A program made the position numbers and the translations under genes. The notes beneath the pieces are model-generated. The model did not search any database, was not told where the DNA came from, and saw nothing but the letters and a program-made list of their open reading frames with translations. 64,000 bases of DNA from an uncultured archaeon (GTDB lineage Archaea > Iainarchaeota > Iainarchaeia > JAADDC01): the NCBI GenBank assembly GCA_964486025.1, contig CAZAKL010000002.1, positions 2,312 to 66,311 of the forward strand. The letters run 5' to 3'. Below, piece by piece: positions 3,627 to 19,809 of this stretch (within the stretch, counting starts at the first letter, position 1; each line of letters opens with the position of its first letter).

Positions 3627-5009
3627 GTGGACGGCTTCTTTCGCCTGGCCGAGCGGTTGGCAGACGTGGTGCGCAAGTGGGACGATATTTTGGTTGTTGG
3701 GCACTACGACGCCGATGGAATCACGTCAACGGCAATCCTCGTCTCTGCATTGCGCTCCTTGGGGAAGGAAGTGCGATTCGTGAACCTAAAGCAGCTCTAC
3801 TCCGACGAGCTGGACCGTGTTGCGGACGCAGGAGAATACTTTATCTTCGCGGATATGGGCGTCGGGCAGCTACCTCTCCTGCGCGAACGCCTCGAAAAGC
3901 CCTTCATCATATTAGACCATCACCAGATTCCGCCGGGAGAGGACTATCCACTCCTTTTGCACCCTCACATCTTTGGAATGGACGGGGCACGCGAAATCAG
4001 CGGGGCGGGCGTTGCATATGCCCTCTACCGTGCCCTTACAGGGAAAACAGACATGGCACATGTGGCGGTTGTTGGTGCCGTTGGAGATGTGCAGCTGGTG
4101 GGCAATCAGCTCGTTGGCTTTAACCGGGAGGTTCTTCTCCGCGATGCCATAGCCTCTGGGAAGCTCTTTGCCTACAGGGACCTCGCTCTCTACGGACGCG
4201 CATCCCGCCCACTCCCCTACATGTTCCTCTACTCCTCCGACCCGATACTTCCCGGCCTGACGGCCAACGAAGAAGCGGTTTTTGACTTTCTCCGTTCTGC
4301 TGGTATAGAGTACGTTCGAGACGGCGTCTGGAGACATTACGTGGACTTAAGCGAGGACGAGAGAAGGCGATTGTTCTCGGAGTTGGCAGTGTACCTTTCG
4401 CGGGTTGGCTGGAGTGAGGAGAGGATTCTGCGGCTTATAGGCGAGGTCTACGAGCTGAGCGGAGAGGACAGGCATTCTCCCCTCTTCGATGTTAGGGAGT
4501 ACGCAACGCTTCTCAACGCCTGCGGTCGTCACGGCCAGCCGGAGATAGGGGTGGAGGTCGCCCTCGGGGACAGGGATGAGTGGTATAGAAAGGCACTCCA
4601 CCTCCTCTCTGAGCACCGTGAGGCTTTGCGGAGGGGGATAGAGTGGGTTGAGCGCTCGGGTCTGGATGAGCTCCCTCACTTATACTACTTCCACGCAAGG
4701 GACGCCATTCCCCCATCTCTGGTGGGCATTGTGGCGGGTATGCTCTACGGTTCCGGTATCGTCCCTGCCGACAGACCCATCGTTGGCTTTGCCTATGACG
4801 AGGGGGAGTACGTGAAGGTATCTGCCCGTGCCAGTGGCGACCTCGTCAGAAAGGGCGTAGACCTATCCGTTGCTGTGCGGCGGGCTGCGGAAGCGGTTGG
4901 CGGCGAGGCGGGCGGGCACAAGCCGGCGGCAGGTGCCAGAATAAGGAGGGGGGAGGAGGAAGAGTTCCTGCGTGCTCTTGATGAAGAGATTGGAAAACAG
5001 ATTACTTGA
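3627..5009 (+). CDS. archaeal RecJ-like DHH phosphoesterase (GAN/Cdc45-like 5'-3' exonuclease)
   Basis: DHH family motifs are present: HYDADG, DHHQIP and a C-terminal GGH. 460 aa matches archaeal GAN/RecJ size. GTG start. Confidence 0.85.
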   Translation: MDGFFRLAERLADVVRKWDDILVVGHYDADGITSTAILVSALRSLGKEVRFVNLKQLYSDELDRVADAGEYFIFADMGVGQLPLLRERLEKPFIILDHHQIPPGEDYPLLLHPHIFGMDGAREISGAGVAYALYRALTGKTDMAHVAVVGAVGDVQLVGNQLVGFNREVLLRDAIASGKLFAYRDLALYGRASRPLPYMFLYSSDPILPGLTANEEAVFDFLRSAGIEYVRDGVWRHYVDLSEDERRRLFSELAVYLSRVGWSEERILRLIGEVYELSGEDRHSPLFDVREYATLLNACGRHGQPEIGVEVALGDRDEWYRKALHLLSEHREALRRGIEWVERSGLDELPHLYYFHARDAIPPSLVGIVAGMLYGSGIVPADRPIVGFAYDEGEYVKVSARASGDLVRKGVDLSVAVRRAAEAVGGEAGGHKPAAGARIRRGEEEEFLRALDEEIGKQIT

Positions 5010-5781
5010 TACGCTCCAGCCCGTATTCCTCTACGATTTCCGCCAGAATCTTTTTTATTTCGTCGGGGACTCCGTGCATCGCGTAGTACCTCGGTTTCGG
5101 GACGGTTCTTTCCACGGCTTTTCGTAGCATGTACTCGTCCGCGAAGGGGAATGCATACTTTGGGAGCATGTGCCCGAATGCCACTCCCTTTTTAAGGGCA
5201 ATCTGTGTGAACCTTGGCGCGTAGTGCCCCCCGCCGATGCCAATTGCCGCGGGCGCATTTATGGGGTTCAACGCAGCCATGATTGCCTCGCCCACAATTT
5301 CTGCAGCATCTTCTCTTACCCACTGCTCCTCAGTACTGCCAATTTCGACGAACATTACAGGGGTATCCAGCGTCGGCCCGTGGTGCGTTACCTCGTACGA
5401 GACGGAGAACCCTTCGAGGGGGTGCCCCGCCAGGTACTTGAGTGCTGCGAGCATGTGCTGGGCAGGGGCATAGGACAGGGTTCTGCTCTGTCCACCGTAG
5501 AGGGCATCGCCCCAGTTTCCCGTTGTGTGGACTGTGAGGCATGGAATACCCGATTCTGCGGAGTGTCGGGACGCTACGATGTATAGGTCGGAGGGATACC
5601 TTTCTTCCAGCCAGTCGGCGTATATGTGCTCCGAATCGATGATTATGAGGTCTGCGTTCCCGTACTTAAAGACGTGGTAGTTGCCGAAGGTCTTGTCCGT
5701 CTTTTCGAAGTAGTTTTCGGTCAGATATTCGCCTATATTGACGGACGCCGGGTCCTTCTTTGAAACGACGATGGTGGGCAT
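5002..5781 (-). CDS. dtdA: D-aminoacyl-tRNA deacylase, archaeal type (DTD2/DtdA)
   Basis: Full-length similarity to archaeal DTD2 (about 260 aa; DPASVNIGE N-terminus, GGGHYAP motif). Start placed at the internal ATG (MPTIVVSKKDPASVNI), which avoids a divergent start-codon overlap. Confidence 0.8.
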   Translation of the reverse strand: MPTIVVSKKDPASVNIGEYLTENYFEKTDKTFGNYHVFKYGNADLIIIDSEHIYADWLEERYPSDLYIVASRHSAESGIPCLTVHTTGNWGDALYGGQSRTLSYAPAQHMLAALKYLAGHPLEGFSVSYEVTHHGPTLDTPVMFVEIGSTEEQWVREDAAEIVGEAIMAALNPINAPAAIGIGGGHYAPRFTQIALKKGVAFGHMLPKYAFPFADEYMLRKAVERTVPKPRYYAMHGVPDEIKKILAEIVEEYGLERIK

Positions 5782-5831
5782 GTAGGGAAGATAAACCGAA
5801 ACCCTTTGAAATGGGGATGCCATATTTCTGT

Positions 5832-6260
5832 ATGCACGTGCCCCGCATCGTAAAGATACTCTTCGTCGTCGTTATTCTCCTTGGGGCTTGGCAGTTTCTA
5901 CATTCCCGAGGTAACGCTTCCGAGCCAGAGTCCGAGGGGGAGGGCGGTGTACGACTCACCGCGCCACTCGAGGTGTTTGCAGACGGCGTTGTTCATGATA
6001 TCTACTCCGAGGCCGTTCTTTTCATGCACCACGGCTCTCCAGTAGGGGGAAGAATGGCGTATTTCCTCTATTATCGGCCGATTCCCGATTCTCCGCACAG
6101 GATAATCGAGTACCTCCGTTCTGCAGATGCGAATATACTGAGAAGCGTTTCTGGGGATAATTGGTACGTTTCTGCCACTCTGCCCTTCGAGGGAAACTCG
6201 GTAACCGTGGATTTCTACCCTGACCGCGAAAAGAACGCCCTTGTGGTCATGGTGCGCTGA
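5832..6260 (+). CDS. signal-anchored hypothetical protein
   Basis: N-terminal hydrophobic segment IVKILFVVVILLGAWQFL. No recognisable family. Confidence 0.4.
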   Translation: MHVPRIVKILFVVVILLGAWQFLHSRGNASEPESEGEGGVRLTAPLEVFADGVVHDIYSEAVLFMHHGSPVGGRMAYFLYYRPIPDSPHRIIEYLRSADANILRSVSGDNWYVSATLPFEGNSVTVDFYPDREKNALVVMVR

Positions 6261-6262
6261 TT

Positions 6263-9007
6263 TTAACCCCAAAACATCTTAGTCCTGTAGTAGTTCCTCT
6301 CAGCCTCCAGCAGCGCCCGCCAGAACTCTTCCTCGCTATACGGTACCCGCAGTATCCTTGCAGCCGTTTGGGAGCCGATTCCCGTCACCGCCATCGCTAT
6401 TACAGCCTTCTTTCCAAAGGACTTGACGAGCTCAGCGCTGCGTATGAGCTCCGTCATCTTTCTCTCCTCGGATTTCTTCAGTCTCTTCTTCTTAAGGAGC
6501 TCCCTCGCCTTTTCTACGTCATATACCACTGCCATTAGAGGTGAGCCGCACCTTGGGCATCTCGGATGCTCGGGGACGTCCTTGACTGTGTATACGTGTT
6601 CTGCACCGCAGGATATGCACATGAGCGTCACTTTCTTCTCAAGGACGCGATTCTTGAAAAGTTCCAGTATTGTGTGCTCCGGTGTGTCCGGGTTAACGAG
6701 TTCCGGTACCTGAAGCGCCTTTGAGAGCTCCATTTTGCCCAGTTTGCCTATTCCCTTTCTTACTGTTATACGTGTCCTGCCCGAGCGTACGCTGTCGAGC
6801 ATTTCCTTTACGGATTCTACGTCGAGCTTCTCCGTGTAGAGCTCTTTCAGCGTTTCCCTGTAGACGGGAGAGTCGACGAGGGCATCGATAAGGCGCCTCA
6901 CGTTTATTTTATCCAGCTTTGCACTCTTCGATATGAGGCCGAAACGCTTCGCCACGTGTATGAATCGCCACTTGAAAAGGTTCGTCTTCGTTATGTGGTT
7001 TTCAAGTATGATTTCAAGTACCTCGGGGTCCACAGTTCGCAGTATCTTCTCAATTTCCCCTGCGTCGAAGCCCGGTGTGGGGAATTCAAGAACTATTGCG
7101 TAGGGCGATGAGAACACGCGTATAGGGATGCCGTAGCGCCTCGATATCTCCGCCGCTAAGAGCCGGGATAGGGTGGTGTTTCCCCTTGAGCCAAGGGGAA
7201 CGTGTATTACGACGTACTCTTCGCTTTGCTCTATTATGATTTCGTTCTCACCGGGGACGTTCTTGAAGACGTCTCTAACGTGCTCGATGTCCCTTACATC
7301 CGCGACATCCCCTATCGTTTCCATCTTGTTTGCAATCCTCCGCCGCTCTCGCCAGACTTCCTCTGCCACGCTTTTGTGGACGGGTATCATCTCGCCTATC
7401 CATGCGGGAATTGCACCGACAAGGCTCTCCGACGGCTCAACGTATACCTTTTGCTCCTCTATGGAGACGACGCGCCACGGCCTGCCCTTTACCACAAAGA
7501 CCGTTCCACTCTCCAAGTACGACGTAACGAAATCCTCGTCAAGGAATGCCACTCTCTTCTGCGATACCGTGTCTATGACAGAGAAGCGCTCCTGGTCGGG
7601 TATCATGCTTAGGTTGTAGTAATAGTAGCGCCAGCTGTCCCTCGACTTTGTTATGCGGTCTCCGCGTATGCGCAGGAAGCGTTCCGATTCCAGCTGCTTG
7701 ACAACCTCCCAGAACTCCTCTTCTGATAATTTCTCGTACGGTTGTGCCCGTGTTACAATCTCGTAGGCATCTCTTAGGCTAATTTCACCCCAGTCCATGA
7801 GTATTCCGACAATCTGGTGTGCCAAAACGTCATATGCCTTCTCTTCCTGCTCTATTGGCTCCAAACGCTTGCTCTGGGCAAGCTTGGCTATCACCGACGA
7901 CTCCACGAAGTCGTTTTCGTCCAGCGCTATGATGTATCCTATGGACGGCCTGTCCCAGCGGTGCCCCGAGCGGCCGACCCTCTGTATGAGGCGTGCCACT
8001 TGCCTCGGCGAGCCGTACTGAACAACCGCGTCCACCTCTCCAACGTCTATGCCGAGTTCCATGCTGCTCGTGGCGATGAGGTGCTTTATCTCGCCCGACT
8101 TGAACGTTTTCTCAACGGAAAGGCGCACGTCTTTTGACAGCGAGGAGTGGTGGACATCGGTCCTGTCGTGGAATGCAGAGAAGTAGAGGGAGAGCTGCTC
8201 CGCCATGTTTCGCGTGTTTACGAACGTGATGACCTGCTTGTGCCTGTCCACGATTTCCTTCAGCACCTTTACGCGCGCAAGCACGTCTGGCGACATTCCC
8301 AGCGACTGTGCCTCTCTCCTCGTCCTCCCGTCCGGAATGGGGTAGAATACGTGGATACGGTAATCCTTGCGCATGGACACGTCTATAATCTCTGCCGTCC
8401 TACCCTTTCCCGCCAGAAACCGCGCTACGAGCTCGGGGGAACCCACCGTGGCAGAGAGGCCTATGCGCTGGAATTCCCTGCCGGTCTTTTCGCGTAAGCG
8501 TTCCAAGGCTATCGCGAGCTGGTATCCTCTTTTCTCTGCTACAAGCTCGTGTATCTCGTCAATTATGACGTATCTTACGTTCTCAAGATGTTTGCCCATC
8601 TTCTCTGCGGGCAGCATTGCCTGGAGGGATTCTGGAGTGGTTATGAGTATGTGAGGAGGCTCATTGGCCTGCTTCGACCTCCTGTACTGGGATGTGTCCC
8701 CGTGGCGGACGTCTACTTTGAACCCGAGCTGCTCCCCCCACCACTTTATTCGCTCGAGCATGTCGCGGTTGAGGGCACGGAGCGGCGTTATGTATAGCAA
8801 CGTTACCGGCTTTGCATCCTTTTCGAGCATCTCGGCGAGAACAGGAATTAACGCAGCCTCCGTTTTTCCAGAACCTGTCGGTGCGATTATGAGGACGTTT
8901 TTACCGTCGCGAATGGGCTGGTATGCCTTCTTTTGCACCTCTGTGGGCTCCTTTAATCCTTTCTTCCGCCAGAGCTCCAGTATCTTTTCCTCAGCCATCC
9001 GCACCAT
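6263..9007 (-). CDS. lhr: Lhr-family ATP-dependent helicase (superfamily 2)
   Basis: 914 aa. Walker A PTGSGKT, DEIH box, SAT, and a long C-terminal extension typical of Lhr-core helicases. Confidence 0.9.
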   Translation of the reverse strand: MVRMAEEKILELWRKKGLKEPTEVQKKAYQPIRDGKNVLIIAPTGSGKTEAALIPVLAEMLEKDAKPVTLLYITPLRALNRDMLERIKWWGEQLGFKVDVRHGDTSQYRRSKQANEPPHILITTPESLQAMLPAEKMGKHLENVRYVIIDEIHELVAEKRGYQLAIALERLREKTGREFQRIGLSATVGSPELVARFLAGKGRTAEIIDVSMRKDYRIHVFYPIPDGRTRREAQSLGMSPDVLARVKVLKEIVDRHKQVITFVNTRNMAEQLSLYFSAFHDRTDVHHSSLSKDVRLSVEKTFKSGEIKHLIATSSMELGIDVGEVDAVVQYGSPRQVARLIQRVGRSGHRWDRPSIGYIIALDENDFVESSVIAKLAQSKRLEPIEQEEKAYDVLAHQIVGILMDWGEISLRDAYEIVTRAQPYEKLSEEEFWEVVKQLESERFLRIRGDRITKSRDSWRYYYYNLSMIPDQERFSVIDTVSQKRVAFLDEDFVTSYLESGTVFVVKGRPWRVVSIEEQKVYVEPSESLVGAIPAWIGEMIPVHKSVAEEVWRERRRIANKMETIGDVADVRDIEHVRDVFKNVPGENEIIIEQSEEYVVIHVPLGSRGNTTLSRLLAAEISRRYGIPIRVFSSPYAIVLEFPTPGFDAGEIEKILRTVDPEVLEIILENHITKTNLFKWRFIHVAKRFGLISKSAKLDKINVRRLIDALVDSPVYRETLKELYTEKLDVESVKEMLDSVRSGRTRITVRKGIGKLGKMELSKALQVPELVNPDTPEHTILELFKNRVLEKKVTLMCISCGAEHVYTVKDVPEHPRCPRCGSPLMAVVYDVEKARELLKKKRLKKSEERKMTELIRSAELVKSFGKKAVIAMAVTGIGSQTAARILRVPYSEEEFWRALLEAERNYYRTKMFWG

Positions 9008-9115
9008 ATATATTCCTCCTCCAAAACCATTATCTACGTGCCACCCTCATCGCTCAAAGAGCGGCGCCGCTTCTACAGCTCCTTTGACGCTAGTTCTGCC
9101 TTCTCTTGGGCAAAG

Positions 9116-9757
9116 ATGGTAACGCCCCGACCCGTTTTTGCCATAAACCCGGGATGGAACACGCGTATCGTTCACCCTCGCCTGCGTGCCCTCGTCTTCA
9201 AGCGAAACGTACGTATGATATGGTTGCGGGACGTTTCGTCTCCGGAGGACCTGCGCCGCAAACTGCTCAAATATCTGCCAGAGGGTGTATACTACTGGCG
9301 CAACGTAGTTTCTGACCCATCTCTATGTGCTGGATGCTCCCTGAGATTCTTCCGCCGCCACAACCTTTGTGCGAACTGTCCAAATTTTCTGGGGCAGGAG
9401 CTCATGTTTGACATTGACCCTGAGCGCATACCCTCGCAGCGATTCGAGGATTTAAAGGCTGCGGTCCTCGGGGCATACGATTACCTTTCTGAGATGTTTT
9501 CAGACCTGCGGGTCGTTTTCTCCGGCCGCGGTTTTCATATACACGTCTTTGACCCCGATGCCTTTTTGCTCCCCATATCCGAGCGGAGACGGCTCGTTGA
9601 TGAGCTACGGATGTACGGGGTTGATTCGCAGGTAACCGCTGGCGGCGCGTCTCTTGCCAGACTTCCCTTTACGTTGAACGGGAGGTCGGGGTTCGTTGTA
9701 CAGCCGCTGGAAGTGGAAAAAATAGATGGTTTTGACCCTTACCATTCTTCATCGTAA
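9116..9757 (+). CDS. minimal archaeo-eukaryotic primase (AEP) paralog, PriS-like catalytic core with zinc ribbon
   Basis: AEP motif I LMFDIDPE, motif II VFSGRGFHIHV and motif III VDSQ...LARLPFTLNGRSG each align with the PriS in this window. CAGC...CANC zinc motif. ATG at 9116; the alternative GTG at 9038 is also possible. Confidence 0.6.
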   Translation: MVTPRPVFAINPGWNTRIVHPRLRALVFKRNVRMIWLRDVSSPEDLRRKLLKYLPEGVYYWRNVVSDPSLCAGCSLRFFRRHNLCANCPNFLGQELMFDIDPERIPSQRFEDLKAAVLGAYDYLSEMFSDLRVVFSGRGFHIHVFDPDAFLLPISERRRLVDELRMYGVDSQVTAGGASLARLPFTLNGRSGFVVQPLEVEKIDGFDPYHSSS

Positions 9758-9798
9758 TCTTCATCGTCTAAGTCCTCGTCTTCGTCCCAGTCCTCGTC

Positions 9799-9900
9799 CT
9801 ATTCATCTTCGTCCCAGTCTTCCTCTTCCCACTCCTCTTCGTCGATTTCCTCGCCCTCGTAGTAGTCTTCGTCCTTGAGCTCCTCCTTCTCCTCCACCAT
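9799..9900 (-). CDS. acidic mini-ORF (33 aa, MVEEKEELKDEDYYEGEEIDEEEWEEEDWDEDE), hypothetical
   Basis: ATG at 9900 with a TATA box (9929-9937 on this strand) about 30 nt upstream. An in-frame TAG is followed by 19 more acidic codons running to a TAA at 9739. Confidence 0.25.
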   Translation of the reverse strand: MVEEKEELKDEDYYEGEEIDEEEWEEEDWDEDE

Positions 9901-9928
9901 GGCAATCGCTATGAACGGTTAAGTAGGG

Positions 9929-9958
9929 TTTATAAATCTCGTGCTTGCGCATTTAAAT
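9929..9958. promoter_or_regulatory. pair of TATA boxes (tttataaat / atttaaata) serving divergent leaderless genes
   Basis: 9929-9937 lies about 30 nt upstream of the minus-strand ATG at 9900. 9951-9958 lies about 27 nt upstream of the plus-strand ATG at 9982. Confidence 0.45.
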
Positions 9959-9981
9959 ACTTCCAGGGCGTATTTTCTCTG

Positions 9982-10743
9982 ATGGCTCTGTTCAAGAGGG
10001 TTCTGGCGGACGCTGCAGATGTGGGCCTCCTTGTGCTTGTAATTCTATTCCTCTACGGCCTCTTCTACGCGTTCGGCTCGGTCCTTTCATCCGTTCAGTC
10101 TGCATACGTTCTCACCATTCTCAGCTCTTCGAATCCGATTCTATCCATGCGGCCAGCGTTTTACGATGCTCTCTCTTCCCTGAGTGACCCCCTGACGCTT
10201 CTTTCCATGCTCATTTATGGCATACTTCTGACGTACCTCTCGCTCGTTGTCATTGGCTGGATAGGTAAAAAACGCATTGGCTACCCCGAGAATCCATTCA
10301 AACGGGCAGTGGAAGCGATTATACCGTTCATTATACTTGGAATCGTTGTATTTGCGCCCATTCTCCTGCTTTTCTCCCTCATGCTCTACTTCTCCTCAAA
10401 CGTTACCCTTCTGGTGACCTTTTTCGTGCTATTCCTCGTCTTTTTGCTTGTCTACGTCCCAATCGTGTCCCCTTCCATGGTTTCCCTCGTTCTCGACGCC
10501 GATTCTGTCTCCAAGGCCCTGAGGAATGGTGTGCTCGTGGGTCGGCGGAGGTGGATACGCATACTCATTTACATGTTTGGTGTGGCGGTTGTCACATCCC
10601 TCTTTCTGTATCTCTTCAACGCGATTGCGATGTACTTCCCGCCGCTCTCCGATTTCCTCCTTGTTCTCTACCAGGCGATATCCTTCGTCCTGCCACTGGC
10701 CGTGCTGACAGAGGTGTATGTGGCGGACACTTACGGTGAGTAG
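9982..10743 (+). CDS. integral membrane protein (about 7 TM), hypothetical
   Basis: 253 aa, highly hydrophobic. The stop abuts the tmcA start. Confidence 0.6.
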   Translation: MALFKRVLADAADVGLLVLVILFLYGLFYAFGSVLSSVQSAYVLTILSSSNPILSMRPAFYDALSSLSDPLTLLSMLIYGILLTYLSLVVIGWIGKKRIGYPENPFKRAVEAIIPFIILGIVVFAPILLLFSLMLYFSSNVTLLVTFFVLFLVFLLVYVPIVSPSMVSLVLDADSVSKALRNGVLVGRRRWIRILIYMFGVAVVTSLFLYLFNAIAMYFPPLSDFLLVLYQAISFVLPLAVLTEVYVADTYGE

Positions 10744-10744
10744 A

Positions 10745-13018
10745 ATGGATTTTGTCAGGGAGGCACTTGAGGCGGCAAAGGTCACTCGTCAGCGTCGGCT
10801 CTTCGTGGTCTCCGGCGACTGGAAGAGGGGCATGAAGGTAGTGGGCAACATACTTCAAGAAGCGAAGAATTACGTGGGGAAGGACCTTCTCTACTTTGCG
10901 GAGTTTCCGAAGGAATCGGATATTGGCGAGCGCCGCTTCAAGGAGTTTGCCAGAAACATACACGGGCTTGGCTACCTCGTCCAGAAGAAGCCCTTTGCCA
11001 TGGCCAACACCGTGCTTGGCAGGACCTATGACGTCCTCGTCCTTGATGCCTATGAGAACTTCCCCCCACGGGACATAGGCATCATAGTGGAGACGGTCCG
11101 CGGTCCGGGTGTCATAATCCTCCTCGTTCCCGAGCTTCCGAAGTGGGTATCCTCTAAGCTTTACTTCCACGGGCAGTACGTCGTCACGCCGCCGTACTCC
11201 GTCGAGGACTGCAGGAACATATTCCTCAACCGGGTTGTGAAGAAGCTCTTCGAGCACGACGGCATATACATTCTCTCCGACGACGGGAAGCTCGTAAAGA
11301 AGCCAAAGGAGAAAAAGGCAAAGAAGAAGGTAAAGAGGCTGAAAATACCGAAGGACAGGGAGTTCCCCGAGGAGATATACAAACTGGCGGTTACTCAGGA
11401 CCAGATTAACGTCATACACGCCCTTGAATCCGTTCCAAAGAATAAGAAGCATGCGTACGTTGTTCTTGCAGATAGGGGGCGTGGCAAGTCTGCCGCTATA
11501 GGTCTTACCCTGGCGGGCATACTTTCCCAGAAAAAATGGGAGGTCATTGTAACCGCACCATCCTTTCAGAACGCTGAAGAGGTCTTCAAATTCATAAAAA
11601 TAGGTCTTGATGCCCTCGGAGTGGAGTATAAAGATAAGAAACGGGAGATAAGGGTCAAATCCGGCGGCGAGGTGGCATTTCTTGAACCGCTGGATACAGT
11701 GGAGCGCAAGGCGGACATACTCGTGGTTGACGAGGCAGCAGGTATTTACGTGTCTATTTTGAAGGCGTTCCTGCGGCGCTACAAGCGCATTATATTCTCC
11801 ACGACTACCCACGGCTATGAGGGAACCGGCCGCCTCTTCCAGTACCGCTTCCTCCCGGCGCTGGAGAAAAAGTTCGAGGTGCACCAGCTCCGTATGAGTG
11901 AGCCCATTCGCTACGGCGAGGGGGACCCCATTGAATCCTGGCTCTATGACGTTTTCCTCCTCGATGCAGAGCCGGCAGACCTTACAAAGAAAGACCTGAA
12001 GGAAATAGAGCAGGGTAAGCTTGTTTTCGAGAAACTGGATGTGGAGAAGCTGTTTCTTGAGGACGAGAAGACGTTGCGCCAGTTTATCGGTATTTACGTC
12101 TACGCGCATTACCGGAACAACCCGCGCGATATTGCAATCCTTGCGGATGCGCCGAACCAGAATGCCTTCGTCGTCAAGACGGAGTCCGGAAAGGTTGTGT
12201 GCTCCCTTCAGGTGGCGGAGGAGGGGGGGCTGCCAAAGGCGGTTATCGACCTGCTTAAGGAGGGAGAAATTGTCCAGGGGAACATTGTCCCCGACCTCAT
12301 GCTCAAGTACTACGGCTACGACAACTTTGCCCGCGCAAAGGGGCTGCGTGTCGTCCGAATTGCAACCCATCCTGAGCTTCAGGGGAGGGGTATCGGTTCC
12401 TTCGGCCTCAAAAACCTCATAAGCTATGCGGTGGAAAACGAGTATGCATGGGTGGGCGCAGTCTTCGGAGCATCCGAGCAGCTTCTCCGATTCTGGCTCA
12501 AGAACGGCTTTATACCTGTCCACGTTTCGCCCAAGCGCAACCCAGAGTCCGGGGAGTATTCTACGGCGGTCCTGCACCCGCTCAGACAGGCAATCAAAGA
12601 TATAATCAATGTATCGAACTTCGGTATGAAGCTGCGCCTTGCCTACGAGCTCGATAATTTCTACAGGAACATGGACCCAGAGGTTGCCCTTCAGCTTTTC
12701 GCATCGGGGGAGCGCAGGGACGTCCCGCTCGACCTCACGACGCCGGAGAAGAGAAAGCTCAAACGCATGGTGGAGGGCGGTCTGCACTACGACGCCGTCT
12801 CGGAGGTCGTATACCGCATGACGATAAACTACTTCATCGGGCGCATGGAGCCGCCCATGGAGGACAAGGACCGCCTGTATCTCATAGAGAAGGTGCTCAA
12901 GAAGCGCACGTGGAAGGGTGTGGGGGACGTGTTCAATAAGGATCCCATGAAGGTCGCGCGGCGGCTGGACAGAATCCTCTACGGGCTTGCCCGCTGGTAT
13001 CTGGGTGAGCTCTCTTGA
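10745..13018 (+). CDS. tmcA: tRNA/rRNA cytidine N4-acetyltransferase (TmcA/Nat10 homolog)
   Basis: DUF1726-like N-terminus, helicase-type Walker A ADRGRGKS, VVDEAA, and a C-terminal GNAT motif QGRGIGS. About 758 aa. Confidence 0.9.
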   Translation: MDFVREALEAAKVTRQRRLFVVSGDWKRGMKVVGNILQEAKNYVGKDLLYFAEFPKESDIGERRFKEFARNIHGLGYLVQKKPFAMANTVLGRTYDVLVLDAYENFPPRDIGIIVETVRGPGVIILLVPELPKWVSSKLYFHGQYVVTPPYSVEDCRNIFLNRVVKKLFEHDGIYILSDDGKLVKKPKEKKAKKKVKRLKIPKDREFPEEIYKLAVTQDQINVIHALESVPKNKKHAYVVLADRGRGKSAAIGLTLAGILSQKKWEVIVTAPSFQNAEEVFKFIKIGLDALGVEYKDKKREIRVKSGGEVAFLEPLDTVERKADILVVDEAAGIYVSILKAFLRRYKRIIFSTTTHGYEGTGRLFQYRFLPALEKKFEVHQLRMSEPIRYGEGDPIESWLYDVFLLDAEPADLTKKDLKEIEQGKLVFEKLDVEKLFLEDEKTLRQFIGIYVYAHYRNNPRDIAILADAPNQNAFVVKTESGKVVCSLQVAEEGGLPKAVIDLLKEGEIVQGNIVPDLMLKYYGYDNFARAKGLRVVRIATHPELQGRGIGSFGLKNLISYAVENEYAWVGAVFGASEQLLRFWLKNGFIPVHVSPKRNPESGEYSTAVLHPLRQAIKDIINVSNFGMKLRLAYELDNFYRNMDPEVALQLFASGERRDVPLDLTTPEKRKLKRMVEGGLHYDAVSEVVYRMTINYFIGRMEPPMEDKDRLYLIEKVLKKRTWKGVGDVFNKDPMKVARRLDRILYGLARWYLGELS

Positions 13019-13326
13019 TGCTCCACTTCCGTCCGGAGTATGAGAAGGATGTGCTCACCGGAAGGAAGAGAATCACCATACGCTACGGCAGGAAATACGA
13101 TGTGCGGCCCGGCAACATCGTTTATCTTGCTGTCCGCGGGAAGCCAATCGCCCGTGCAAAGATTACCCACGTCTACGTTAAAAAACTGAGGGAACTGAGC
13201 GAGCATGAGATAAAGATGGAGGGGTTCAAATCTCTCCATGCCCTCATAAAGCATCTGCGCAGGATATACCCAGATATCGGCCCGGACTCATACGTAACAG
13301 TCCTCCGCTGGAAACTCCTCCGATAG
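13018..13326 (+). CDS. ASCH-domain protein, YqfB-like (putative N4-acylcytidine amidohydrolase)
   Basis: 103 aa. GRKRITIR ASCH signature and a C-terminal IYPD...YVTVLRW region align with E. coli YqfB. The start overlaps the tmcA stop (TGATG). Confidence 0.75.
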   Translation: MLHFRPEYEKDVLTGRKRITIRYGRKYDVRPGNIVYLAVRGKPIARAKITHVYVKKLRELSEHEIKMEGFKSLHALIKHLRRIYPDIGPDSYVTVLRWKLLR

Positions 13327-13365
13327 GTATTTATACGAGGTGTCCCTTCTTTTCAGGGTGATAGC

Positions 13366-13671
13366 ATGTGCAAGGACGCGTATACGCTTGCAATATGGAC
13401 GCTCCTGGTTGTTTCTGCCCTTGTTGGCGCGTACCAGATATATAATATAGCCATCAATCCACAGCTCGCGCCTCAGGCCATTCTGCTCTTGGCGTACGTA
13501 GCTTACGCCATGCCCATTGTCGCACTGGTTCTGTACGCCATAAAGCAGGTACGCTGGCTCTCAGCAGTCGCAGCAGCCCTTGCGGTGGCGCTTGCAAATT
13601 CCATACCAATGGCCACGTTCCTTATACTCTACATTTACGGGACGGTCAGCGGAAAGGAGCAGCGCCACTAA
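13366..13671 (+). CDS. small membrane protein (3 TM), hypothetical
   Basis: 101 aa, hydrophobic. Confidence 0.5.
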   Translation: MCKDAYTLAIWTLLVVSALVGAYQIYNIAINPQLAPQAILLLAYVAYAMPIVALVLYAIKQVRWLSAVAAALAVALANSIPMATFLILYIYGTVSGKEQRH

Positions 13672-13680
13672 TTTATAAAC
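13671..13680 (+). promoter_or_regulatory. TATA box (atttataaac) upstream of orc1/cdc6
   Basis: Lies about 25 nt upstream of the ATG at 13700. Confidence 0.4.
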
Positions 13681-13699
13681 TCCCTTCCCTTTTTCTCTG

Positions 13700-14752
13700 A
13701 TGGGCCTCTTTGATGCGCCGAGTGCCGACATACTTCTCCGTCCCGAAGTCCTCGATACTGACTACATTCCCGATGTTCTCCCCCACAGAGAGGCCCAGAT
13801 GAGAGACATTGCATCTACAATTTCGTATGCCCTCGAGTCGGGCCGCTCTTCCAACGTATTCATTGTTGGTCCGCCCGGAACGGGTAAGACTGCCTCTGTA
13901 CGTTACGTTCTCCGGGAGCTGTCTTCGTACTCCCCGCTGACTTTCCAGACGTACGTAAACTGCTGGGTTTACCGCACACGTTACTCCATTATTTCCTTTC
14001 TCGCCAAGGAGCTGCGTGTGCCCGTCCCGCGGCGGGGGGTGGCACCGGATGAGGCATACGACCGCATATTCTCCCGTCTGAACGACTCAAGAGGCGCAGT
14101 CATAGTCCTTGACGAGGTGGACCGCCTCTCTCGCGAGTCTTCGGAGGTTCTTTACGACTTTTCACGTCTGCACGAGTTTCTGGAAATACCGGCGGTCATC
14201 ATAACGATAGCGAACACCGAATCCTTCGTGTACAGGCTGGACCCGCGCATATACTCCACGCTCTTCTCTAGGAAGATAGAGTACAAACCGTACACCGTCC
14301 CGCAGCTGAAGGACATCCTCCGCGAGCGTGCAAAGCTCGCCCTCGCCGACGGGAGCTATGACGATAACATCCTCGGCCTGTGTGCAGCCATAGGATGGAA
14401 ACGTGGGGGAGATGCCCGTGCTGCCATCTCCTGTCTTTACGAGGCGGCGGTTCTTGCCGAGCGGAGTGGGGCAGACAGGATAACTCCCGAGCATGTGCGC
14501 AGCGTTGCACCGCAAATCGTATCCTCCCGCCACGAGCATCTCGAGCCGAAGTACGTTCCCATTGTCGAGATACTCAGGGCGGAAGGGGAGCTGACCGTTC
14601 GCGAGCTCTATGAGCGTTACGTGCGCAGAGTGGGGAAGATTACCCTCCGCGCATTCCGTAACTATCTGAGGGAGCTTGAGGCCTTGGGGGTTATAGAAAT
14701 GCGCCGTCTGAATGTGCGGGGGTACGTTCGGGCGGTCCGCTTGAAGGAATGA
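13700..14752 (+). CDS. orc1: Orc1/Cdc6 replication initiator (AAA+ plus winged helix)
   Basis: Walker A GPPGTGKT, Walker B VLDEVD, sensor motifs, and a C-terminal wH domain. 350 aa. Confidence 0.9.
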   Translation: MGLFDAPSADILLRPEVLDTDYIPDVLPHREAQMRDIASTISYALESGRSSNVFIVGPPGTGKTASVRYVLRELSSYSPLTFQTYVNCWVYRTRYSIISFLAKELRVPVPRRGVAPDEAYDRIFSRLNDSRGAVIVLDEVDRLSRESSEVLYDFSRLHEFLEIPAVIITIANTESFVYRLDPRIYSTLFSRKIEYKPYTVPQLKDILRERAKLALADGSYDDNILGLCAAIGWKRGGDARAAISCLYEAAVLAERSGADRITPEHVRSVAPQIVSSRHEHLEPKYVPIVEILRAEGELTVRELYERYVRRVGKITLRAFRNYLRELEALGVIEMRRLNVRGYVRAVRLKE

Positions 14753-14780
14753 TTATAAATGAGCAGGGCGTTTTAACCAC

Positions 14781-15023
14781 ATGGACAACCGCGAAGTTGC
14801 CCTGGAACTGCTGAAAATATTTTTGGAGACACACAGGGAGAAGGTGGAACTGGATGAGCTTGTTGATGCGTATCTTTACATACTGGATATACTCGAGCAC
14901 GGGCACCCGGCGGAGCAGCAGGGAAATGCGCCAGCACCGGAGGGTCCCGCGCCCGGCGACAGCGGGGACGACTCTCTCTTCGACTTTAAGCAGCCGTTGA
15001 GCGTTTCTGACAAGGAAGTGTGA
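14781..15023 (+). CDS. small hypothetical protein (80 aa)
   Basis: ORF with a TATA box (ttataaat) at about 14754. Acidic, Pro-rich C-terminus. Confidence 0.4.
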   Translation: MDNREVALELLKIFLETHREKVELDELVDAYLYILDILEHGHPAEQQGNAPAPEGPAPGDSGDDSLFDFKQPLSVSDKEV

Positions 15024-15761
15024 TTAGAGCCCCTCTATGGGGTACACCACTATTCCCCTTTCTCTCGTTATTTCCAGCGGGTGGACGAACTCCGAGTGCT
15101 TTGTGCCGCGCATCTTACGAACCTGTAGTGTTCTCGTTGCCCTTCCGCCAAGAGAACCGTATCTCAGAACAATTAGCCCATCTGCGACATACTCTTCCAC
15201 GCCATACTTCGAGTACACGCCTGCGTTCTCCGGAATCTCTGTCGTGACAATTGATGTGACCCCCGTCTTTGCCAGGACGTACGACATCTTCAGAATTGCC
15301 TTTCGCACCTCCACTTCCGTGTCGTACTTGAAGCCCAGCGCGGGAAGAGAGTCTACGACGAGACGCTTCGCTCCCATTTCCTTCACGGCCTTTATGACTT
15401 CCACAAGGAGTTTATCTAGGCTGAAGCCCGTCTCGGGGAGCGCGTATTCCTCCTCGGACGGTATACCCACCTTCGTAACCGTCCCGTCAATAATACGTAT
15501 CATGCCCTTGTCCTCAAGCGCCTTGAAGTCCCAGCCAAACTGGAGCATGTCTTCGCGAATCGTGGCAGGTCTCTCATCAAGAGTTACAAAGACCCCCGGC
15601 TCGCCGTAATCCACTGCTCCCCTGTATATGAACTGTGCGGAGAAAATCGTTTTCCCAGTTCCCGTGGACCCTGATACGAGGACCATCCTCCTTCTCGGTA
15701 TTCCGCCCTCTATCAGCTCATCGAGACCGTCTATTCCCGTGGGTGCGCGTTCCATGCTCAT
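15024..15761 (-). CDS. KaiC-like RecA-superfamily ATPase (single domain)
   Basis: PTGIDGLDELIEGGIP...GSTGTGKTIFSAQFIYRG closely matches the KaiC N-domain Walker A context. 245 aa. Confidence 0.8.
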   Translation of the reverse strand: MSMERAPTGIDGLDELIEGGIPRRRMVLVSGSTGTGKTIFSAQFIYRGAVDYGEPGVFVTLDERPATIREDMLQFGWDFKALEDKGMIRIIDGTVTKVGIPSEEEYALPETGFSLDKLLVEVIKAVKEMGAKRLVVDSLPALGFKYDTEVEVRKAILKMSYVLAKTGVTSIVTTEIPENAGVYSKYGVEEYVADGLIVLRYGSLGGRATRTLQVRKMRGTKHSEFVHPLEITRERGIVVYPIEGL

Positions 15762-15821
15762 AGATGGAAGAGGTCATTTATATGCCCTTTGCCCCCAGAG
15801 TATATCGTGGCTTCCCGTCGC

Positions 15822-16151
15822 ATGCATGCAAAGGATTTAACGATTTCTGAGGTTTCCGGCGACGGCGAGCGTGTTGCAGTTCTGTGCACGGTTGTCGAAT
15901 TCGAGCCGAATAGAATGGAGGGAAAGATTGACGACGGAACGGGTATGGCCACCTTTATACTTGAAGACTCGCTCTTCGCCGAGAAAATTCGGGAAGGCGG
16001 CCTCGTTCGCGTTGTAGGCAGGGCTTATAAATCGGAGGATGGACTATTAATTAGGGCGGAAGTCATTCAGGATATGAGCGAGGTTGACCCGGCTCTTTAC
16101 GCTCAAATACGCGAACTGGAAAGGAGGGTTTACAATGAAAGTGGTGTTTGA
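15822..16151 (+). CDS. small OB-fold nucleic-acid-binding protein (RPA/tRNA_anti-like)
   Basis: About 109 aa from the ATG at 15822 (the TTG at 15789 is less likely). The pattern GERVAVLCTVVEF...DDGTG...VRVVG is typical of RPA-type OB folds. Confidence 0.5.
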   Translation: MHAKDLTISEVSGDGERVAVLCTVVEFEPNRMEGKIDDGTGMATFILEDSLFAEKIREGGLVRVVGRAYKSEDGLLIRAEVIQDMSEVDPALYAQIRELERRVYNESGV

Positions 16152-16884
16152 TAGCGCAGATGTTCTTAAGAAGAGTGTGAAGGCTCTTTCAGCTCTTATC
16201 GACGAAGGGGAGTTCATATTCGATGAGGAGGGCATGAAGCTGCGCGCGACTGACCCATCTAAGATTGCGATGGTGGATTTCTCCCTTCCAAAGCATGCCT
16301 TCCGCGAGTACGATGTTCCCGGTCCTGTGAAGGTGGGCCTGAATCTCTCCGACCTTCAGGACGTCTTCAAGAAGGCGAAGTCCTCAGAGTCCGTTGAAAT
16401 GTCACTTTCCGAGGACGGTTCCCGCTTCACGATTGAGCTCGTCGGCCGTGCGCGCCGCCGTTTCGTCCTGTCGGTCCTCGACCTCGGCGGTATGGAGCTT
16501 CCGCTCCCGAAGATACCATTCACCGCCACCGCAAAGGTTATAGCGGACGTATTCGCATCTGCGCTGGACGACGCATCTTCCTTCTCTACGCACGTGACCA
16601 TAGAAGTCACGCCAGAGGAATTCACGATGCGGGCGTCTGGCAGCAAGGGCGAGTACGCCCTTGAGCTGAAGAAGGACGTTCACGATGCGCTCCTCGACCT
16701 GAATGTCTCCGAGCGTGCAAGGGCATCGTACCCGCTTGACTACCTGGAGGACATGGTCTCACAGGCAAACAAGAGCGCTGCAATAACCATTTCCCTCTCG
16801 ACGGATGCGCCCCTGAAGCTGGCGTATGCGATAGGTGATGCAAACTTTGTATACTTCCTGGCGCCCAGAATAGAGACGGGTTGA
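16135..16884 (+). CDS. pcnA: DNA polymerase sliding clamp PCNA (paralog A)
   Basis: 250 aa, PCNA fold signature throughout, C-terminal LAPRIE. GGAGG lies 7 nt upstream of the ATG. Confidence 0.9.
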   Translation: MKVVFDSADVLKKSVKALSALIDEGEFIFDEEGMKLRATDPSKIAMVDFSLPKHAFREYDVPGPVKVGLNLSDLQDVFKKAKSSESVEMSLSEDGSRFTIELVGRARRRFVLSVLDLGGMELPLPKIPFTATAKVIADVFASALDDASSFSTHVTIEVTPEEFTMRASGSKGEYALELKKDVHDALLDLNVSERARASYPLDYLEDMVSQANKSAAITISLSTDAPLKLAYAIGDANFVYFLAPRIETG

Positions 16885-16888
16885 TAGC

Positions 16889-17638
16889 ATGGAGCAGCTA
16901 CACGTCCTCCTTGAAGACCCGAAGCCGTGGAAGCAGGCGGTGGATGCCCTCTACTCCTTTCTTCCCGAGGGTGTTTTTTACTTCGGGGAAGATGGCGTCC
17001 GCCTGCGGGCGATAGACCCATCTCAAGTCGTCTTTGTGGACTTCTTTGCTCCGCGTTCCATATTTTCCAGATATGAGCTGGCGAGCTCCCCCATACGTGT
17101 TCCCCTTGACCTCAATGAGTATGCAAAGATTCTGGCGCGCGTTTCTGGAGGGGAACGGCTGAGCATGGTGCTTGAGGACGTTAATCTCTCTGTTGTCCTT
17201 GAACGACCGGACGGTTCTCTCCGCAGGGAGTTCTACGTCCCTCTTATGGATATCCCGGACCACGATGTGGAAATGTCCCCCGTTGAGGGGGCGGTCACTG
17301 TCCAAATCCTCGGCAAGATTATGAAGGATGCCCTGAAGGACGCTGGCATATTCTCGTCCTCCGCCGTCATTGTAGCACGTGACGACATATTCATGGTGGA
17401 GGCAAAGGGACAGGCGGGCGTGACGAGGACTGTTGCCAGGAAGGGCGACGCCGTCAGAATAGAGGGCGGTCCGGAGGCAGTCTCTCGTTATTCCCTCTCA
17501 TTCCTGCAGAATATTATACGTCCGGCGGACCCGGACAGCTTTGTGACGCTTTCCTTCGGCAACGACACGCCCCTGAGCATATCCTACAAGATAGGGGACA
17601 TATCGCTCCGTTTCTATCTCGCACATATGATACTCTGA
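16889..17638 (+). CDS. PCNA paralog B (divergent)
   Basis: 249 aa with PCNA-like architecture (both N and C domains). Only distant identity to paralog A. Confidence 0.8.
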   Translation: MEQLHVLLEDPKPWKQAVDALYSFLPEGVFYFGEDGVRLRAIDPSQVVFVDFFAPRSIFSRYELASSPIRVPLDLNEYAKILARVSGGERLSMVLEDVNLSVVLERPDGSLRREFYVPLMDIPDHDVEMSPVEGAVTVQILGKIMKDALKDAGIFSSSAVIVARDDIFMVEAKGQAGVTRTVARKGDAVRIEGGPEAVSRYSLSFLQNIIRPADPDSFVTLSFGNDTPLSISYKIGDISLRFYLAHMIL

Positions 17639-17639
17639 C

Positions 17640-17670
17640 GGTTCACATTTCGAACCTTTTCTCTTTTTGT
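17640..17670 (+). terminator. hairpin (GGTTC-7nt-GAACC) followed by a T-rich tract
   Basis: Seen directly after the PCNA-B stop: ggttcacatttcgaacc, then ttttctcttttt. Confidence 0.4.
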
Positions 17671-17692
17671 AGCGTTTCCCCCAAGTTATACC

Positions 17693-18562
17693 GTGGAGTC
17701 CTTTTACGCCGTGTACCCGTTTCTCCCTTCTGCTGCAAGGAGGGCGGAACGTCTTGGTATAGACCCCACTGCCCTCGACGACGCTACCCTCTCGTCTGCG
17801 TCCGACCGTTTCCGACAGATTCTCCTGAAGCACTTTGACCTTCCCGTCTTAGATGAGCGGACGGAGCTTCTGCACTTCATTCTTTTCCGCATGTTTGCGT
17901 CAGCGTTGGGGAGCGACTACTATTATGAGCTGCTCGGGAAGTTCTATGCGGAGAGGGCGCGGCGTTACGACCCCGTGGAATTCTTTGTGGAGCTGGGAAT
18001 AGACCCCTCTGCGATTCCGCTTCCTGAGTATATGAAATACAGCCACATCTACCCGGAAACGAAGCTCTACTACGTTGATGTTGAAAGGGGTATTGTGCAT
18101 CTTGACGACGAGCGTGCACGGCTGTTCGCCGGCGATATCGCGTATACATTGTCCATACGGGGGCTCCCCCTCGACCCGTCGAAGATACCGAAGGCGTACG
18201 TGGACTATGCACGGCGGGCAGTGCCTGTTCGCCGTTCATCTTCTCCAAAGACAGCGAAGGGCTACTCGTTCATAGAGTCCATCCTTTCCACCTCTGGCAT
18301 TCCTGACGGAAGGAAACGCATCATTTTCTACTGGTTAGCGCCGTATCTCGTAAACATAAAGGGTCTGACACCTGAAGAGGCAGTCTCCGTCCTTAACGAG
18401 TGGCTCTCTCGGCAGGGAGGTGGCAAAATACCTCCATCGTGGGTGAAGGATGAAGCGCTCCTTGCGAAGAGGAAGGGTATACGGCCGTGGGGCCTGAAGA
18501 AGGTGGAATCCACCGACCCGGGTCTCGTCAAGATGCTCCGTGGCATGGGGGTGCTTGAATGA
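17693..18562 (+). CDS. cysteine-free helical protein co-translated with PriS (PriL-NTD/PriX-like candidate)
   Basis: 289 aa, GTG start, stop overlaps the priS ATG (ATGA). The motif DGRKRIIFYWLAPYLVNIKGLTPEEAVSVLNEWL resembles PriCT/PriX-type helical modules. No Cys, so no Fe-S ligands. Confidence 0.5.
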   Translation: MESFYAVYPFLPSAARRAERLGIDPTALDDATLSSASDRFRQILLKHFDLPVLDERTELLHFILFRMFASALGSDYYYELLGKFYAERARRYDPVEFFVELGIDPSAIPLPEYMKYSHIYPETKLYYVDVERGIVHLDDERARLFAGDIAYTLSIRGLPLDPSKIPKAYVDYARRAVPVRRSSSPKTAKGYSFIESILSTSGIPDGRKRIIFYWLAPYLVNIKGLTPEEAVSVLNEWLSRQGGGKIPPSWVKDEALLAKRKGIRPWGLKKVESTDPGLVKMLRGMGVLE

Positions 18563-19809
18563 GTGAGCAAATCGCGAGGATACTCAGGGACGCGTTTCGC
18601 CGATATTACAGGTCTCACGACGTTCCGCCGCCCCCGGCTCTGGAGCAGAGGGAGTTTGGCGTCGGTGACTATGGCAGGAAGATTGTGAGGCGGCACATGG
18701 CCTTTGTATCGCGTCGCGAGTTCCGTAACTACCTCAGAGAGGAGGCCCCCCTCTACATTTCGTACTCCGTGGGATACTTTGAGCGCCCCGATGCCACGCC
18801 CATGGAGGCGAAGGGCCTTCTCGGTGCGGATATGATATTCGAGTTCGATGCGGACGAGCTCGGGCTGTTCTCACCAAACGATGTATGGGTCTGCCCCCAC
18901 TGCGGTGCAAAGGGCCTCGTCTCCGAGCTTAGGGGATTCAAAGTGGGGATATGCCCCAAGTGTGGCGACCCTGCAAAGGTTATCATGTTTCCCGACCCTG
19001 AGAGGGAAGAGAAACTGAAGGAAGAGGTCGATACCCTTGTAAAGGATTTCCTAATGAACGATTTCGGCATATCTTCCAAGGAGATATCTATAAACTTCTC
19101 GGGGAACAGGGGATACCATATACATGTCCGCTCCCCTGCGCTGCGAGAGCTGGACAAGGAAGCGCGCATAGAGATTGTCGAGTACGTCACGGGCCAGAAC
19201 ATAGACGTTCGCTACTTCTTCGATGTGTCTAGGGTTCCCCCGCGGGGTCCAAAGCCCACGGACCCCGCATGGAAGGGCAGAATTGCCCGGAACATCATAG
19301 AGATTATTTCGAGGGTGAGCGACGCGTCCGAGCTTGTGCGCATGGGCGTACATCCCGGTGTCGCACGCAGGATTGCACGTGACAGGGGGCAAATCGTCGA
19401 GATGATAGAGAACGGGGTGTGGCCATTCATCGATACGAAGGGTGATGACGCCTTTGCCTCCCTCTCCGCCCTTGTGAAGACGCTGTCGCCATTCATGGGC
19501 AAGGAAATAGATACGAATACGTCTGTGGATATTCACCGCCTCATACGTGTTCCCGACTCTATACACGGAAGCACAGGGCTTCTTGCCAAGAGTATAACTA
19601 ATCTGAAGGCCTTCGACCCGTATAGAGACGCGGTGGCGCTTCCCGAGCGCCCGTACCTGTCTCTGCACGTGGACTATGCACCCGAATTCGAGTTTGCCGG
19701 CGAGACCTGGGGACCGTTTCAGGATATAAATGTGGAGTTACCTCTTCATGTTAGTATATTCCTTTTGAGCAAGGGGGTCGCGCATTGGAGATTAACTACT
19801 CGAGGTTGA
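18559..19809 (+). CDS. priS: DNA primase small (catalytic) subunit PriS
   Basis: AEP motifs FEFDADE, SGNRGYHIHV and IDTNTSVDIHRLIRVPDSIHGSTG. Zinc knuckle CPHC...CPKC. 416 aa. Confidence 0.9.
   Translation: MSEQIARILRDAFRRYYRSHDVPPPPALEQREFGVGDYGRKIVRRHMAFVSRREFRNYLREEAPLYISYSVGYFERPDATPMEAKGLLGADMIFEFDADELGLFSPNDVWVCPHCGAKGLVSELRGFKVGICPKCGDPAKVIMFPDPEREEKLKEEVDTLVKDFLMNDFGISSKEISINFSGNRGYHIHVRSPALRELDKEARIEIVEYVTGQNIDVRYFFDVSRVPPRGPKPTDPAWKGRIARNIIEIISRVSDASELVRMGVHPGVARRIARDRGQIVEMIENGVWPFIDTKGDDAFASLSALVKTLSPFMGKEIDTNTSVDIHRLIRVPDSIHGSTGLLAKSITNLKAFDPYRDAVALPERPYLSLHVDYAPEFEFAGETWGPFQDINVELPLHVSIFLLSKGVAHWRLTTRG

Follow-up and report, generated by a model that had tools for sequence, protein, structure and literature searches.

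What does a second, very short relative of the catalytic primase subunit PriS do in an archaeon that already encodes a canonical PriS? This question is raised by a gene on contig CAZAKL010000002.1 (assembly GCA_964486025.1) of an uncultured archaeon of the Iainarchaeota lineage, from which a stretch of 64,000 nucleotides, referred to here as the window, was analysed. The initial annotation had described an open reading frame (ORF) at 9116-9757 as a minimal member of the archaeo-eukaryotic primases (AEPs) and had proposed that it forms a repair or translesion pair with the helicase Lhr, which is encoded divergently. We find that its product, termed the small AEP in the following, is a PriS-type AEP with a match far beyond chance and that, as judged from sequence comparison, it belongs to a family of archaeal PriS paralogs that is both old and widespread. 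It is likely to be an active accessory nucleotidyltransferase, as argued below.

The assignment to PriS is based on profiles, on the predicted structure and on direct sequence comparison. The small AEP scores 41.2-41.6 bits against the Pfam family PF01896, for which the cut-off is 26.8 bits. A profile from the alignment of 118 members of the small-AEP family matches PriS from P. abyssi (9f26_A) with an E-value of 2.2e-20, and the PriS structures from Thermococcales are generally matched at about 2e-20, followed by Sulfolobus PriS (5e-14) and by human or yeast Pri1 (about 1e-9). The AlphaFold2 model, computed from the same 118-member alignment, has a mean predicted local distance difference test score (pLDDT) of 95.4 and a predicted template modelling score (pTM) of 0.92. 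When it was compared to the PDB with Foldseek, all of the top 40 matches were PriS or Pri1, the best being 1v33 with an E-value of 6.2e-11 and a template modelling score (TM-score) of 0.73 normalised to the query; normalised to the target, the TM-score between the small AEP and PriS is only about 0.5. LigD polymerase domains are weaker matches (E-values around 1e-5, the best 8e-6; TM-scores 0.53-0.57), and no solved structure was found that is closer to the small AEP than canonical PriS. The PriS encoded in the window itself, a protein of 416 amino acids (aa), is matched by BLASTP around motif II (about 30% identity, E-value 4e-4) and around motif III (23% identity, E-value 1e-3), while motif I is covered by a weak segment with an E-value of 0.37. 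The claim that all three motifs align with the window's own PriS thus holds for motifs II and III and is weak for motif I. The central claim, a second and minimal AEP beside PriS, is borne out by the Pfam score above the cut-off, by the PriS fold that model and structure search agree upon, and by intact catalytic residues. The gene and its parts are located as follows.

9008-9037, no strand: 30-bp spacer between the divergently oriented lhr and AEP genes (sequence; kept in the related loci L001 and L002).
9038-9757, plus strand: small AEP gene, coding for a minimal PriS-like AEP of 239 aa, with GTG start and TAA stop (alignment, NCBI call, PF01896, AlphaFold2, and the ratio of nonsynonymous to synonymous substitutions, dN/dS).
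9038-9115, plus strand: N-terminal 26 residues, SLKERRRFY..FD..W (MPPSSLKERRRFY..FD..W), two helices (homologs, PriS alignment, model).
9326-9379, plus strand: Cys4 motif CAGC...CANC (C97-x2-C100...C111-x2-C114), a presumed zinc ribbon, located before motif I (sequence).
9410-9418, plus strand: motif I, MFDIDPE, with the metal-binding residues D125 (9410-9412) and D127 (9416-9418), invariant in 118 of 118 homologs.
9419-9460, plus strand: site of the lost canonical PriS zinc knuckle; the column of the first knuckle Cys is Ser here (family alignment).
9521-9538, plus strand: motif II, FSGRGFHIHV, with S162-G-R-G-F-H167 for nucleotide binding; S, G, R, G and H show no variation among the 118 homologs.
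9623-9661, plus strand: motif III, VDSQ (D196, 9623-9625), to motif IV, LARLPFTLNG (R208, 9659-9661), invariant in 118 of 118 homologs.

All three catalytic motifs are present, as first described, and the catalytic Asp residues are conserved throughout the homologs. Motif I aligns with FDIDA of Pyrococcus PriS, and motif II matches the SGRGYH of archaeal PriS. Nine residues (D125, D127, S162, G163, R164, G165, H167, D196, and R208) do not vary in any of the 118 homologs. According to the alignment, the family has a complete two-metal site (D125, D127, D196) and all of the residues that bind the nucleotide (S162, R164, H167, and R208).

The gene turned out to be longer than initially annotated. 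The ORF is intact, lies on the plus strand and ends, as described, with a TAA codon at 9755-9757, but the start at ATG 9116, which results in a protein of 213 aa, is ruled out by the N-termini of the homologs, by the model and by the NCBI gene call; GTG 9038 is preferred. When the 239-aa version was aligned with 18 homologs, the 26 extra N-terminal residues (MPPSSLKERRRFYSSFDASSAFSW) were found to fit the conserved N-terminus, for which the homologs show the consensus M-R-x-S-x-L-E-E-R-x-x-F-Y-x-x-E-F-D...W. The nearest homologs start at precisely the equivalent position (MAPPSLRERYRFY in P0002, MPPPTLEERRVFY in P0003). The segment aligns with residues 8-30 of P. abyssi PriS and forms, in the AlphaFold2 model, helices at residues 6-14 and 18-26 with a pLDDT of 96-98. 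An identical protein, P0268, is called by NCBI with 239 aa as well.

With the start at GTG 9038, the start codons of lhr and of the AEP gene are separated by 30 bp and not by about 108 bp. The region shared with lhr is thus divergent and short, as had been stated, but considerably shorter than assumed. It holds ATATATAT beside the ATG of lhr (9007) and CATTATCTA beside the GTG of the AEP gene, and these may represent two putative TATA boxes, arranged back-to-back, which would drive leaderless transcripts.

Start assignment is also an issue for other family members. The database calls for P0006 and P0007 (loci L081 and L082; AEP starts at 6001) begin at TTG, which removes the conserved N-terminal ...PSTLEERKNFY that is found in-frame just upstream. 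Several family members seem to have misplaced gene boundaries, with the annotation either truncated at the 5′ end or, through poly-Ser read-through, extended too far at the 3′ end.

The small AEPs can be separated from canonical PriS by their scores. Full-length family members have 223-295 aa and score at least about 120 bits against the family profile, while canonical PriS proteins (300-424 aa) stay below about 95 bits and are matched only in 2-3 separate stretches. The NCBIfam equivalogs for PriS fall short on the small AEP (TIGR00335, 45.2 versus a required 143.5 bits; NF001639, 50.4 versus 577 bits; NF001641, 43.2 versus 326 bits). Given the score gap, we consider the small AEPs to be a separate family and not fragments of PriS.

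When one genome per GTDB species was scanned (the genome from which the window is taken is outside these representatives), relatives of the small AEP were found in at least 415 species (415 stretches). The best 80 of the 415 are from Archaeoglobi, Methanomethylicia, Bathyarchaeia, Thermoplasmata, Methanosarcinales, Altiarchaeales, several DPANN groups, Freyarchaeia, and Jordarchaeia. The nearest relatives are labelled Iainarchaeum/Diapherotrites, 'Methanobacteriota archaeon SZUA-1452' or 'uncultured archaeon'. A search with a member from Archaeoglobus resulted in 2347 clusters at an E-value of 1e-20 or below, which possibly include some canonical PriS. Among them is a member from a cultured strain, Archaeoglobus veneficus SNP6, where it is annotated as 'DNA primase small subunit' (P0325) and encoded on CP002588.1 at about 254189-255034; other members are annotated as 'DNA primase', 'DNA primase small subunit domain-containing protein' or 'hypothetical protein'. 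The family is thus already recognised automatically by Pfam and by genome annotation, and no paper was found that describes or characterises it. It is not described in PMC3914693, PMC5862659, PMC4538821, PMC6393858, PMC2643942 or the Asgard primase preprint, although the AEP classification of Iyer et al. 2005 might mention it.

As judged from the profile alignment, the whole family is devoid of a domain of about 90 aa which canonical PriS has between motifs II and III. The alignment to 9f26 spans PriS residues 8-180 and 271-329, with no counterpart for residues of about 180-271, and only 28 residues are found between H167 and D196 of the small AEP. The initial annotation had noted the absence of the C-terminal helical region of PriS; the main loss, however, is this internal domain and is not confined to the C-terminal region. 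There is also an addition. The Cys4 motif is found with all four Cys residues in 64 of the 118 family members, canonical PriS shows nothing equivalent there in the profile alignment, and the motif is, by this comparison, an addition specific to the small-AEP family. It is a putative zinc-binding site, modelled with a pLDDT of 76-93.

A different zinc motif, the canonical knuckle (CPxHG...C; CPxHG...SFC) that follows motif I, is kept by 107 of the 118 family members (91%), and the PriS of the window carries it as CPHCG...CPKCG between motifs I and II. In the small AEP, the segment after motif I comprises 13 residues, compared to about 33 in most family members. The knuckle is missing essentially only in the clade of the window protein, which includes P0002-P0007, P0009, P0010, and P0013. 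The zinc motif had been described as being positioned before motif I instead of between motifs I and II. This position is correct, but the motif is a family-specific addition and most members have the knuckle between motifs I and II as well. With the domain loss in the whole family and the knuckle loss in its own clade, the small AEP is a further-reduced family member.

As a genuine replicative primase coexists in the genome, we regard the small AEP as an accessory enzyme. It would be a stand-alone nucleotidyltransferase, derived from PriS, with a complete AEP catalytic core that adds (d)NMPs to a 3′-OH in a metal-dependent and template-directed manner. We consider it likely that its activity serves mainly primer extension, gap filling, lesion bypass or terminal transfer. 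To hold the initiating nucleotide, AEPs require a helix-bundle, the C-terminal domain of PriL (PriL-CTD) or PriX, while an isolated catalytic domain is still able to extend primers (PMC6393858). The small AEP has no PriL-CTD, PriX or helix-bundle module. Because AEPs need such a second module, efficient de novo priming by the small AEP on its own is unlikely, unless PriL or PriX is provided in trans. Judged by its architecture alone, the small AEP could plausibly act in repair or translesion synthesis, but its gene neighbourhood lends such a role no specific support.

Several points weigh against an active accessory enzyme of this type. What the small AEP catalyses, which substrate it prefers and what it does in the cell are inferred. 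The knuckle retained by 91% of the family has been lost here, and the function of the clade may have shifted or weakened. The Arg/Lys of motif IV, here R208, is discussed in PMC5862659, as is H324 of human PriS, which helps to bind the NTP. At the corresponding position 214, this NTP-binding His is replaced by Asn in the small AEP; yet Asn is found in 74 of the 118 family members, with His in the other 44. The rate of nonsynonymous substitution (dN) of the small AEP is about threefold that of the neighbouring lhr. Finally, the Cys4 motif could act as a priming element in cis, by analogy with the zinc finger of human PrimPol, and the small AEP would then be a true primase.

The genes that neighbour the small AEP in the window are listed below.

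3627-5009, plus strand: RecJ/GAN-like DHH protein.
5002-5823, minus strand: D-aminoacyl-tRNA deacylase.
6263-9007, minus strand: Lhr-type helicase, 914 aa (Pfam DEAD, Helicase_C, WH_Lhr, DEAD_assoc); divergent neighbour of the AEP gene.
9739-9900, minus strand: hyper-acidic small ORF, convergent, overlapping the 3′ end of the AEP gene by 19 nt, with an in-frame TAG at 9799-9801.
9982-10743, plus strand: membrane protein.
10718-13018, plus strand: TmcA.
13700-14752, plus strand: Orc1/Cdc6.
16084-16884 and 16889-17638, plus strand: two adjacent PCNA paralogs.
17693-18562, plus strand: PriX-domain protein, 289 aa, with a C-terminal PriX domain (PF18689, 78 bits).
18559-19809, plus strand: canonical PriS, 416 aa.
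19785-20402, plus strand: Gins51.

It is possible, if rather unlikely, that the small AEP is a 'PriS2', i.e. an alternative catalytic subunit which docks on PriL or on a PriX-type subunit and is used, for instance, in repriming or in certain conditions. Such a role would be in line with the homology to PriS over the full length including the N-terminal helices, with the complete nucleotide-binding site, and with the location in a replication-gene region, where Orc1/Cdc6, two PCNA, the PriX-domain gene, PriS, and Gins51 are found within 10 kb. However, the inserted domain and C-terminal parts of PriS are missing, and a PriL or PriX gene is never adjacent to the small AEP in the loci examined. 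For the comparison with lhr, 85 loci were used, namely the 80 best GTDB loci (tblastn of the window neighbours) and the annotated contexts of further homologs. The gene for MCM is divergently adjacent to the AEP gene in 4 loci of Archaeoglobi type and is found within 4 kb in 2 DPANN loci, but these are only 6 of the 80 loci, and MCM was not retained as a partner.

Unbiased clustering of the neighbours within 5 kb on either side of the AEP gene in the 80 loci did not reveal a universal partner gene. The commonest neighbours are lineage-specific, e.g. deoxyhypusine synthase in Methanomethylicia, and ThiS with an A-type ATPase operon in Archaeoglobi including A. veneficus; in one Archaeoglobus-related contig the small AEP is located between the trp and his operons. 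A neighbour cluster with 22 loci consists of antisense ORFs which overlap the AEP gene itself and was taken to be spurious. The MCM ORFs that are divergent beside the small AEP include one of 1168 aa (L004) and one of 1848 aa (L019), and another one in L026 looks intein-interrupted.

In the window, the canonical PriS is encoded apart from the small AEP, in a cluster of two PCNA genes, the PriX-domain gene, PriS, and Gins51, which is a typical arrangement of PCNA, PriS and GINS genes; PriS is also near the small AEP in L010 and L012. The stop of the PriX-domain gene overlaps the start of canonical PriS, and the two apparently form one operon in this DPANN-like genome. PriX has been studied chiefly in Sulfolobus, and the apparent operon may bear on the make-up of the primase in this organism. 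The region 3627-20402 is a dense cluster of replication genes, and a replication origin may be located near the Orc1/Cdc6 gene. Further downstream, an ORF of 945 aa (22788-25625, plus strand) has no Pfam match at an E-value of 0.1 or below and is the largest unannotated ORF among those scanned.

A second alternative concerns the family as a whole. The small AEPs may be self-sufficient, PriL-independent primase-polymerases, and thus a chromosomal counterpart of PrimPol in archaea, in which a zinc module of their own replaces PriL-CTD, PriX or the helix bundle. In most members, this module would be the Cys4 motif, the knuckle after motif I, or both. We consider this unlikely. If true, the family would provide repriming or lesion bypass at stalled forks in many archaea, and the clade of the window, which has only the Cys4 motif, would be its natural minimal version.

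Next is the reading that the small AEP and Lhr are a dedicated primase-polymerase/helicase pair for repair or translesion synthesis, co-regulated from a shared divergent promoter. The two genes are indeed divergent with start codons only 30 bp apart, and Lhr helicases have been linked to DNA damage responses. The divergent arrangement is found in five of the 85 loci (L001, L002, L003, L081, and L082), with AEP identities of 72% down to 47%. However, these five loci represent one Diapherotrites/Iainarchaeum-like lineage, in which the complete block of Lhr, AEP, small acidic ORF, membrane protein, and TmcA has the same order in all five cases. Moreover, adjacency to TmcA reaches further out than adjacency to Lhr: L012-L014 and L024, which come next in relatedness, still have TmcA and the acidic ORF beside the AEP gene, but not Lhr. 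Among about 79 loci from other lineages, there is none where lhr adjoins the AEP gene, and only L030 has an Lhr-like gene, which is about 8 kb away. The family thus works without an adjacent Lhr almost everywhere. The arrangement is best explained as gene order inherited in one DPANN-like lineage and not as a conserved functional module. A dedicated pair with Lhr is therefore improbable, and the coupling to Lhr, which lacks comparative support, should not guide annotation. In L012-L014 and L024, a gene that appears to be PIN-like is located upstream of the AEP gene, at the place of Lhr.

It is hardly credible that the small AEP is a copy of priS that is in decay or has lost catalysis, i.e. a pseudogene or a structural remnant: it is short, has lost the canonical zinc knuckle and evolves faster than its neighbours (72% versus 89% identity to L001), but its ORF is intact, its catalytic residues are invariant in 118 homologs, its predicted fold is of high confidence, and its dN/dS of about 0.1 indicates purifying selection (0.09-0.14 when compared to the orthologs in L001 and L003, which is approximate as dS is saturated). 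Decay of a priS duplicate, named in the initial annotation as one case that would overturn it, is thereby largely refuted. Neither is the gene a recent duplicate of the window's PriS, because the family spans many archaeal phyla; local identity to that PriS is only about 30%.

An origin from a mobile element, a virus or a defence system was considered and rejected. Viral contigs gave only partial matches with 24-34% identity, and no match was obtained among the PHROG and PADLOC families. The two viral matches that were inspected appear to be other types of AEP, one with a helicase-like C-terminal fusion and one a protein of 321 aa encoded next to a large DNA-polymerase-like ORF.

The acidic ORF which converges with the AEP gene is confined to the lineage of the window and was found in 7 of the 80 loci: L001 (7332-7493), L002 (10723-10896), L003 (5220-5429), L012 (8986-9162), L013 (5190-5369), L014 (3098-3280), and L024 (1002-1172). 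It codes for about 52-60 aa with 51-66% Asp and Glu as called and with evenly spaced Trp, Phe and Tyr, ends with ...DEEW or ...DEDEW, and has no Pfam match. In composition, it presumably resembles acidic DNA-mimic proteins of the DSS1/Sem1 type. The in-frame TAG in the window is found where L001, L002, and L003 have TGG (Trp), and could stem from a point mutation or a sequencing error, or mark a truncated allele. Because of the convergent overlap, the C-terminal YHSSS or poly-Ser tails of the AEPs are explained as the antisense of the acidic ORF, and they were dismissed as a functional motif.

In studies of archaeal replication, PriS/PriL, with or without PriX, is treated as the chromosomal AEP, and additional AEPs are regarded as genes of plasmids or viruses. 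The small AEP represents a conserved, chromosomally encoded second PriS-like enzyme. Its carriers number hundreds of archaeal species in many phyla and include at least one cultured strain. It may show how archaea without other specialised polymerases tolerate DNA damage. As a natural PriS core of about 240 aa, it is a convenient system to ask what the catalytic core is capable of when PriL, PriX and the inserted domain are missing and, in this clade, the canonical knuckle as well.

Among known systems, canonical PriS (PF01896; Pyrococcus 1v33, 1g71, 9f26) is closest. It shares the fold, which is collinear from the N-terminal helices to the C-terminal strand, and the motifs DxD, SGRG[FY]H, D, and the Arg of motif IV. 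It differs by having the domain of about 90 aa between motifs II and III and the knuckle after motif I, both of which are missing in the clade of the small AEP, and by lacking the Cys4 motif. In the window, canonical PriS is encoded together with Gins51, PCNA, and the PriX-domain gene, while the small AEP is not.

The polymerase domain of LigD (2iry, 3pky), the AEP of bacterial non-homologous end joining, is likewise a stand-alone core that is comparable in size and has neither a helix-bundle nor an iron-sulphur (Fe-S) module. It acts as a repair polymerase and is, in function, the nearest parallel to a minimal AEP. It is more distant in structure (TM-scores of 0.53-0.57 versus 0.73 for PriS), and the small AEP reaches only 11.1 bits with Pfam LigD_Prim-Pol (PF21686), for which the cut-off is 27.4 bits. 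Around the small AEP in the window, neither Ku nor ligase genes were noticed, and the related loci were viewed without a screen specific for Ku or ligase.

PrimPol and the Prim-Pol clade (pRN1 ORF904) are also second, non-replicative AEPs beside a replicative primase. According to PMC5934617, a zinc-binding element may assist initiation in PrimPol-type enzymes. However, the small AEP has no Prim-Pol Pfam match, no UL52-type C-terminal zinc finger, no helix bundle, and no helicase domain, and it groups with PriS by sequence and by fold.

The fused, monomeric PriS-PriL primase (NEQ395 type), known from Nanoarchaeota and other DPANN archaea (PMC3914693, PMC10250227), shares a compact catalytic domain derived from PriS. 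This enzyme has a PriL-like Fe-S domain and is the sole replicative primase, whereas the small AEP is devoid of this domain and is encoded beside a canonical PriS of 416 aa.

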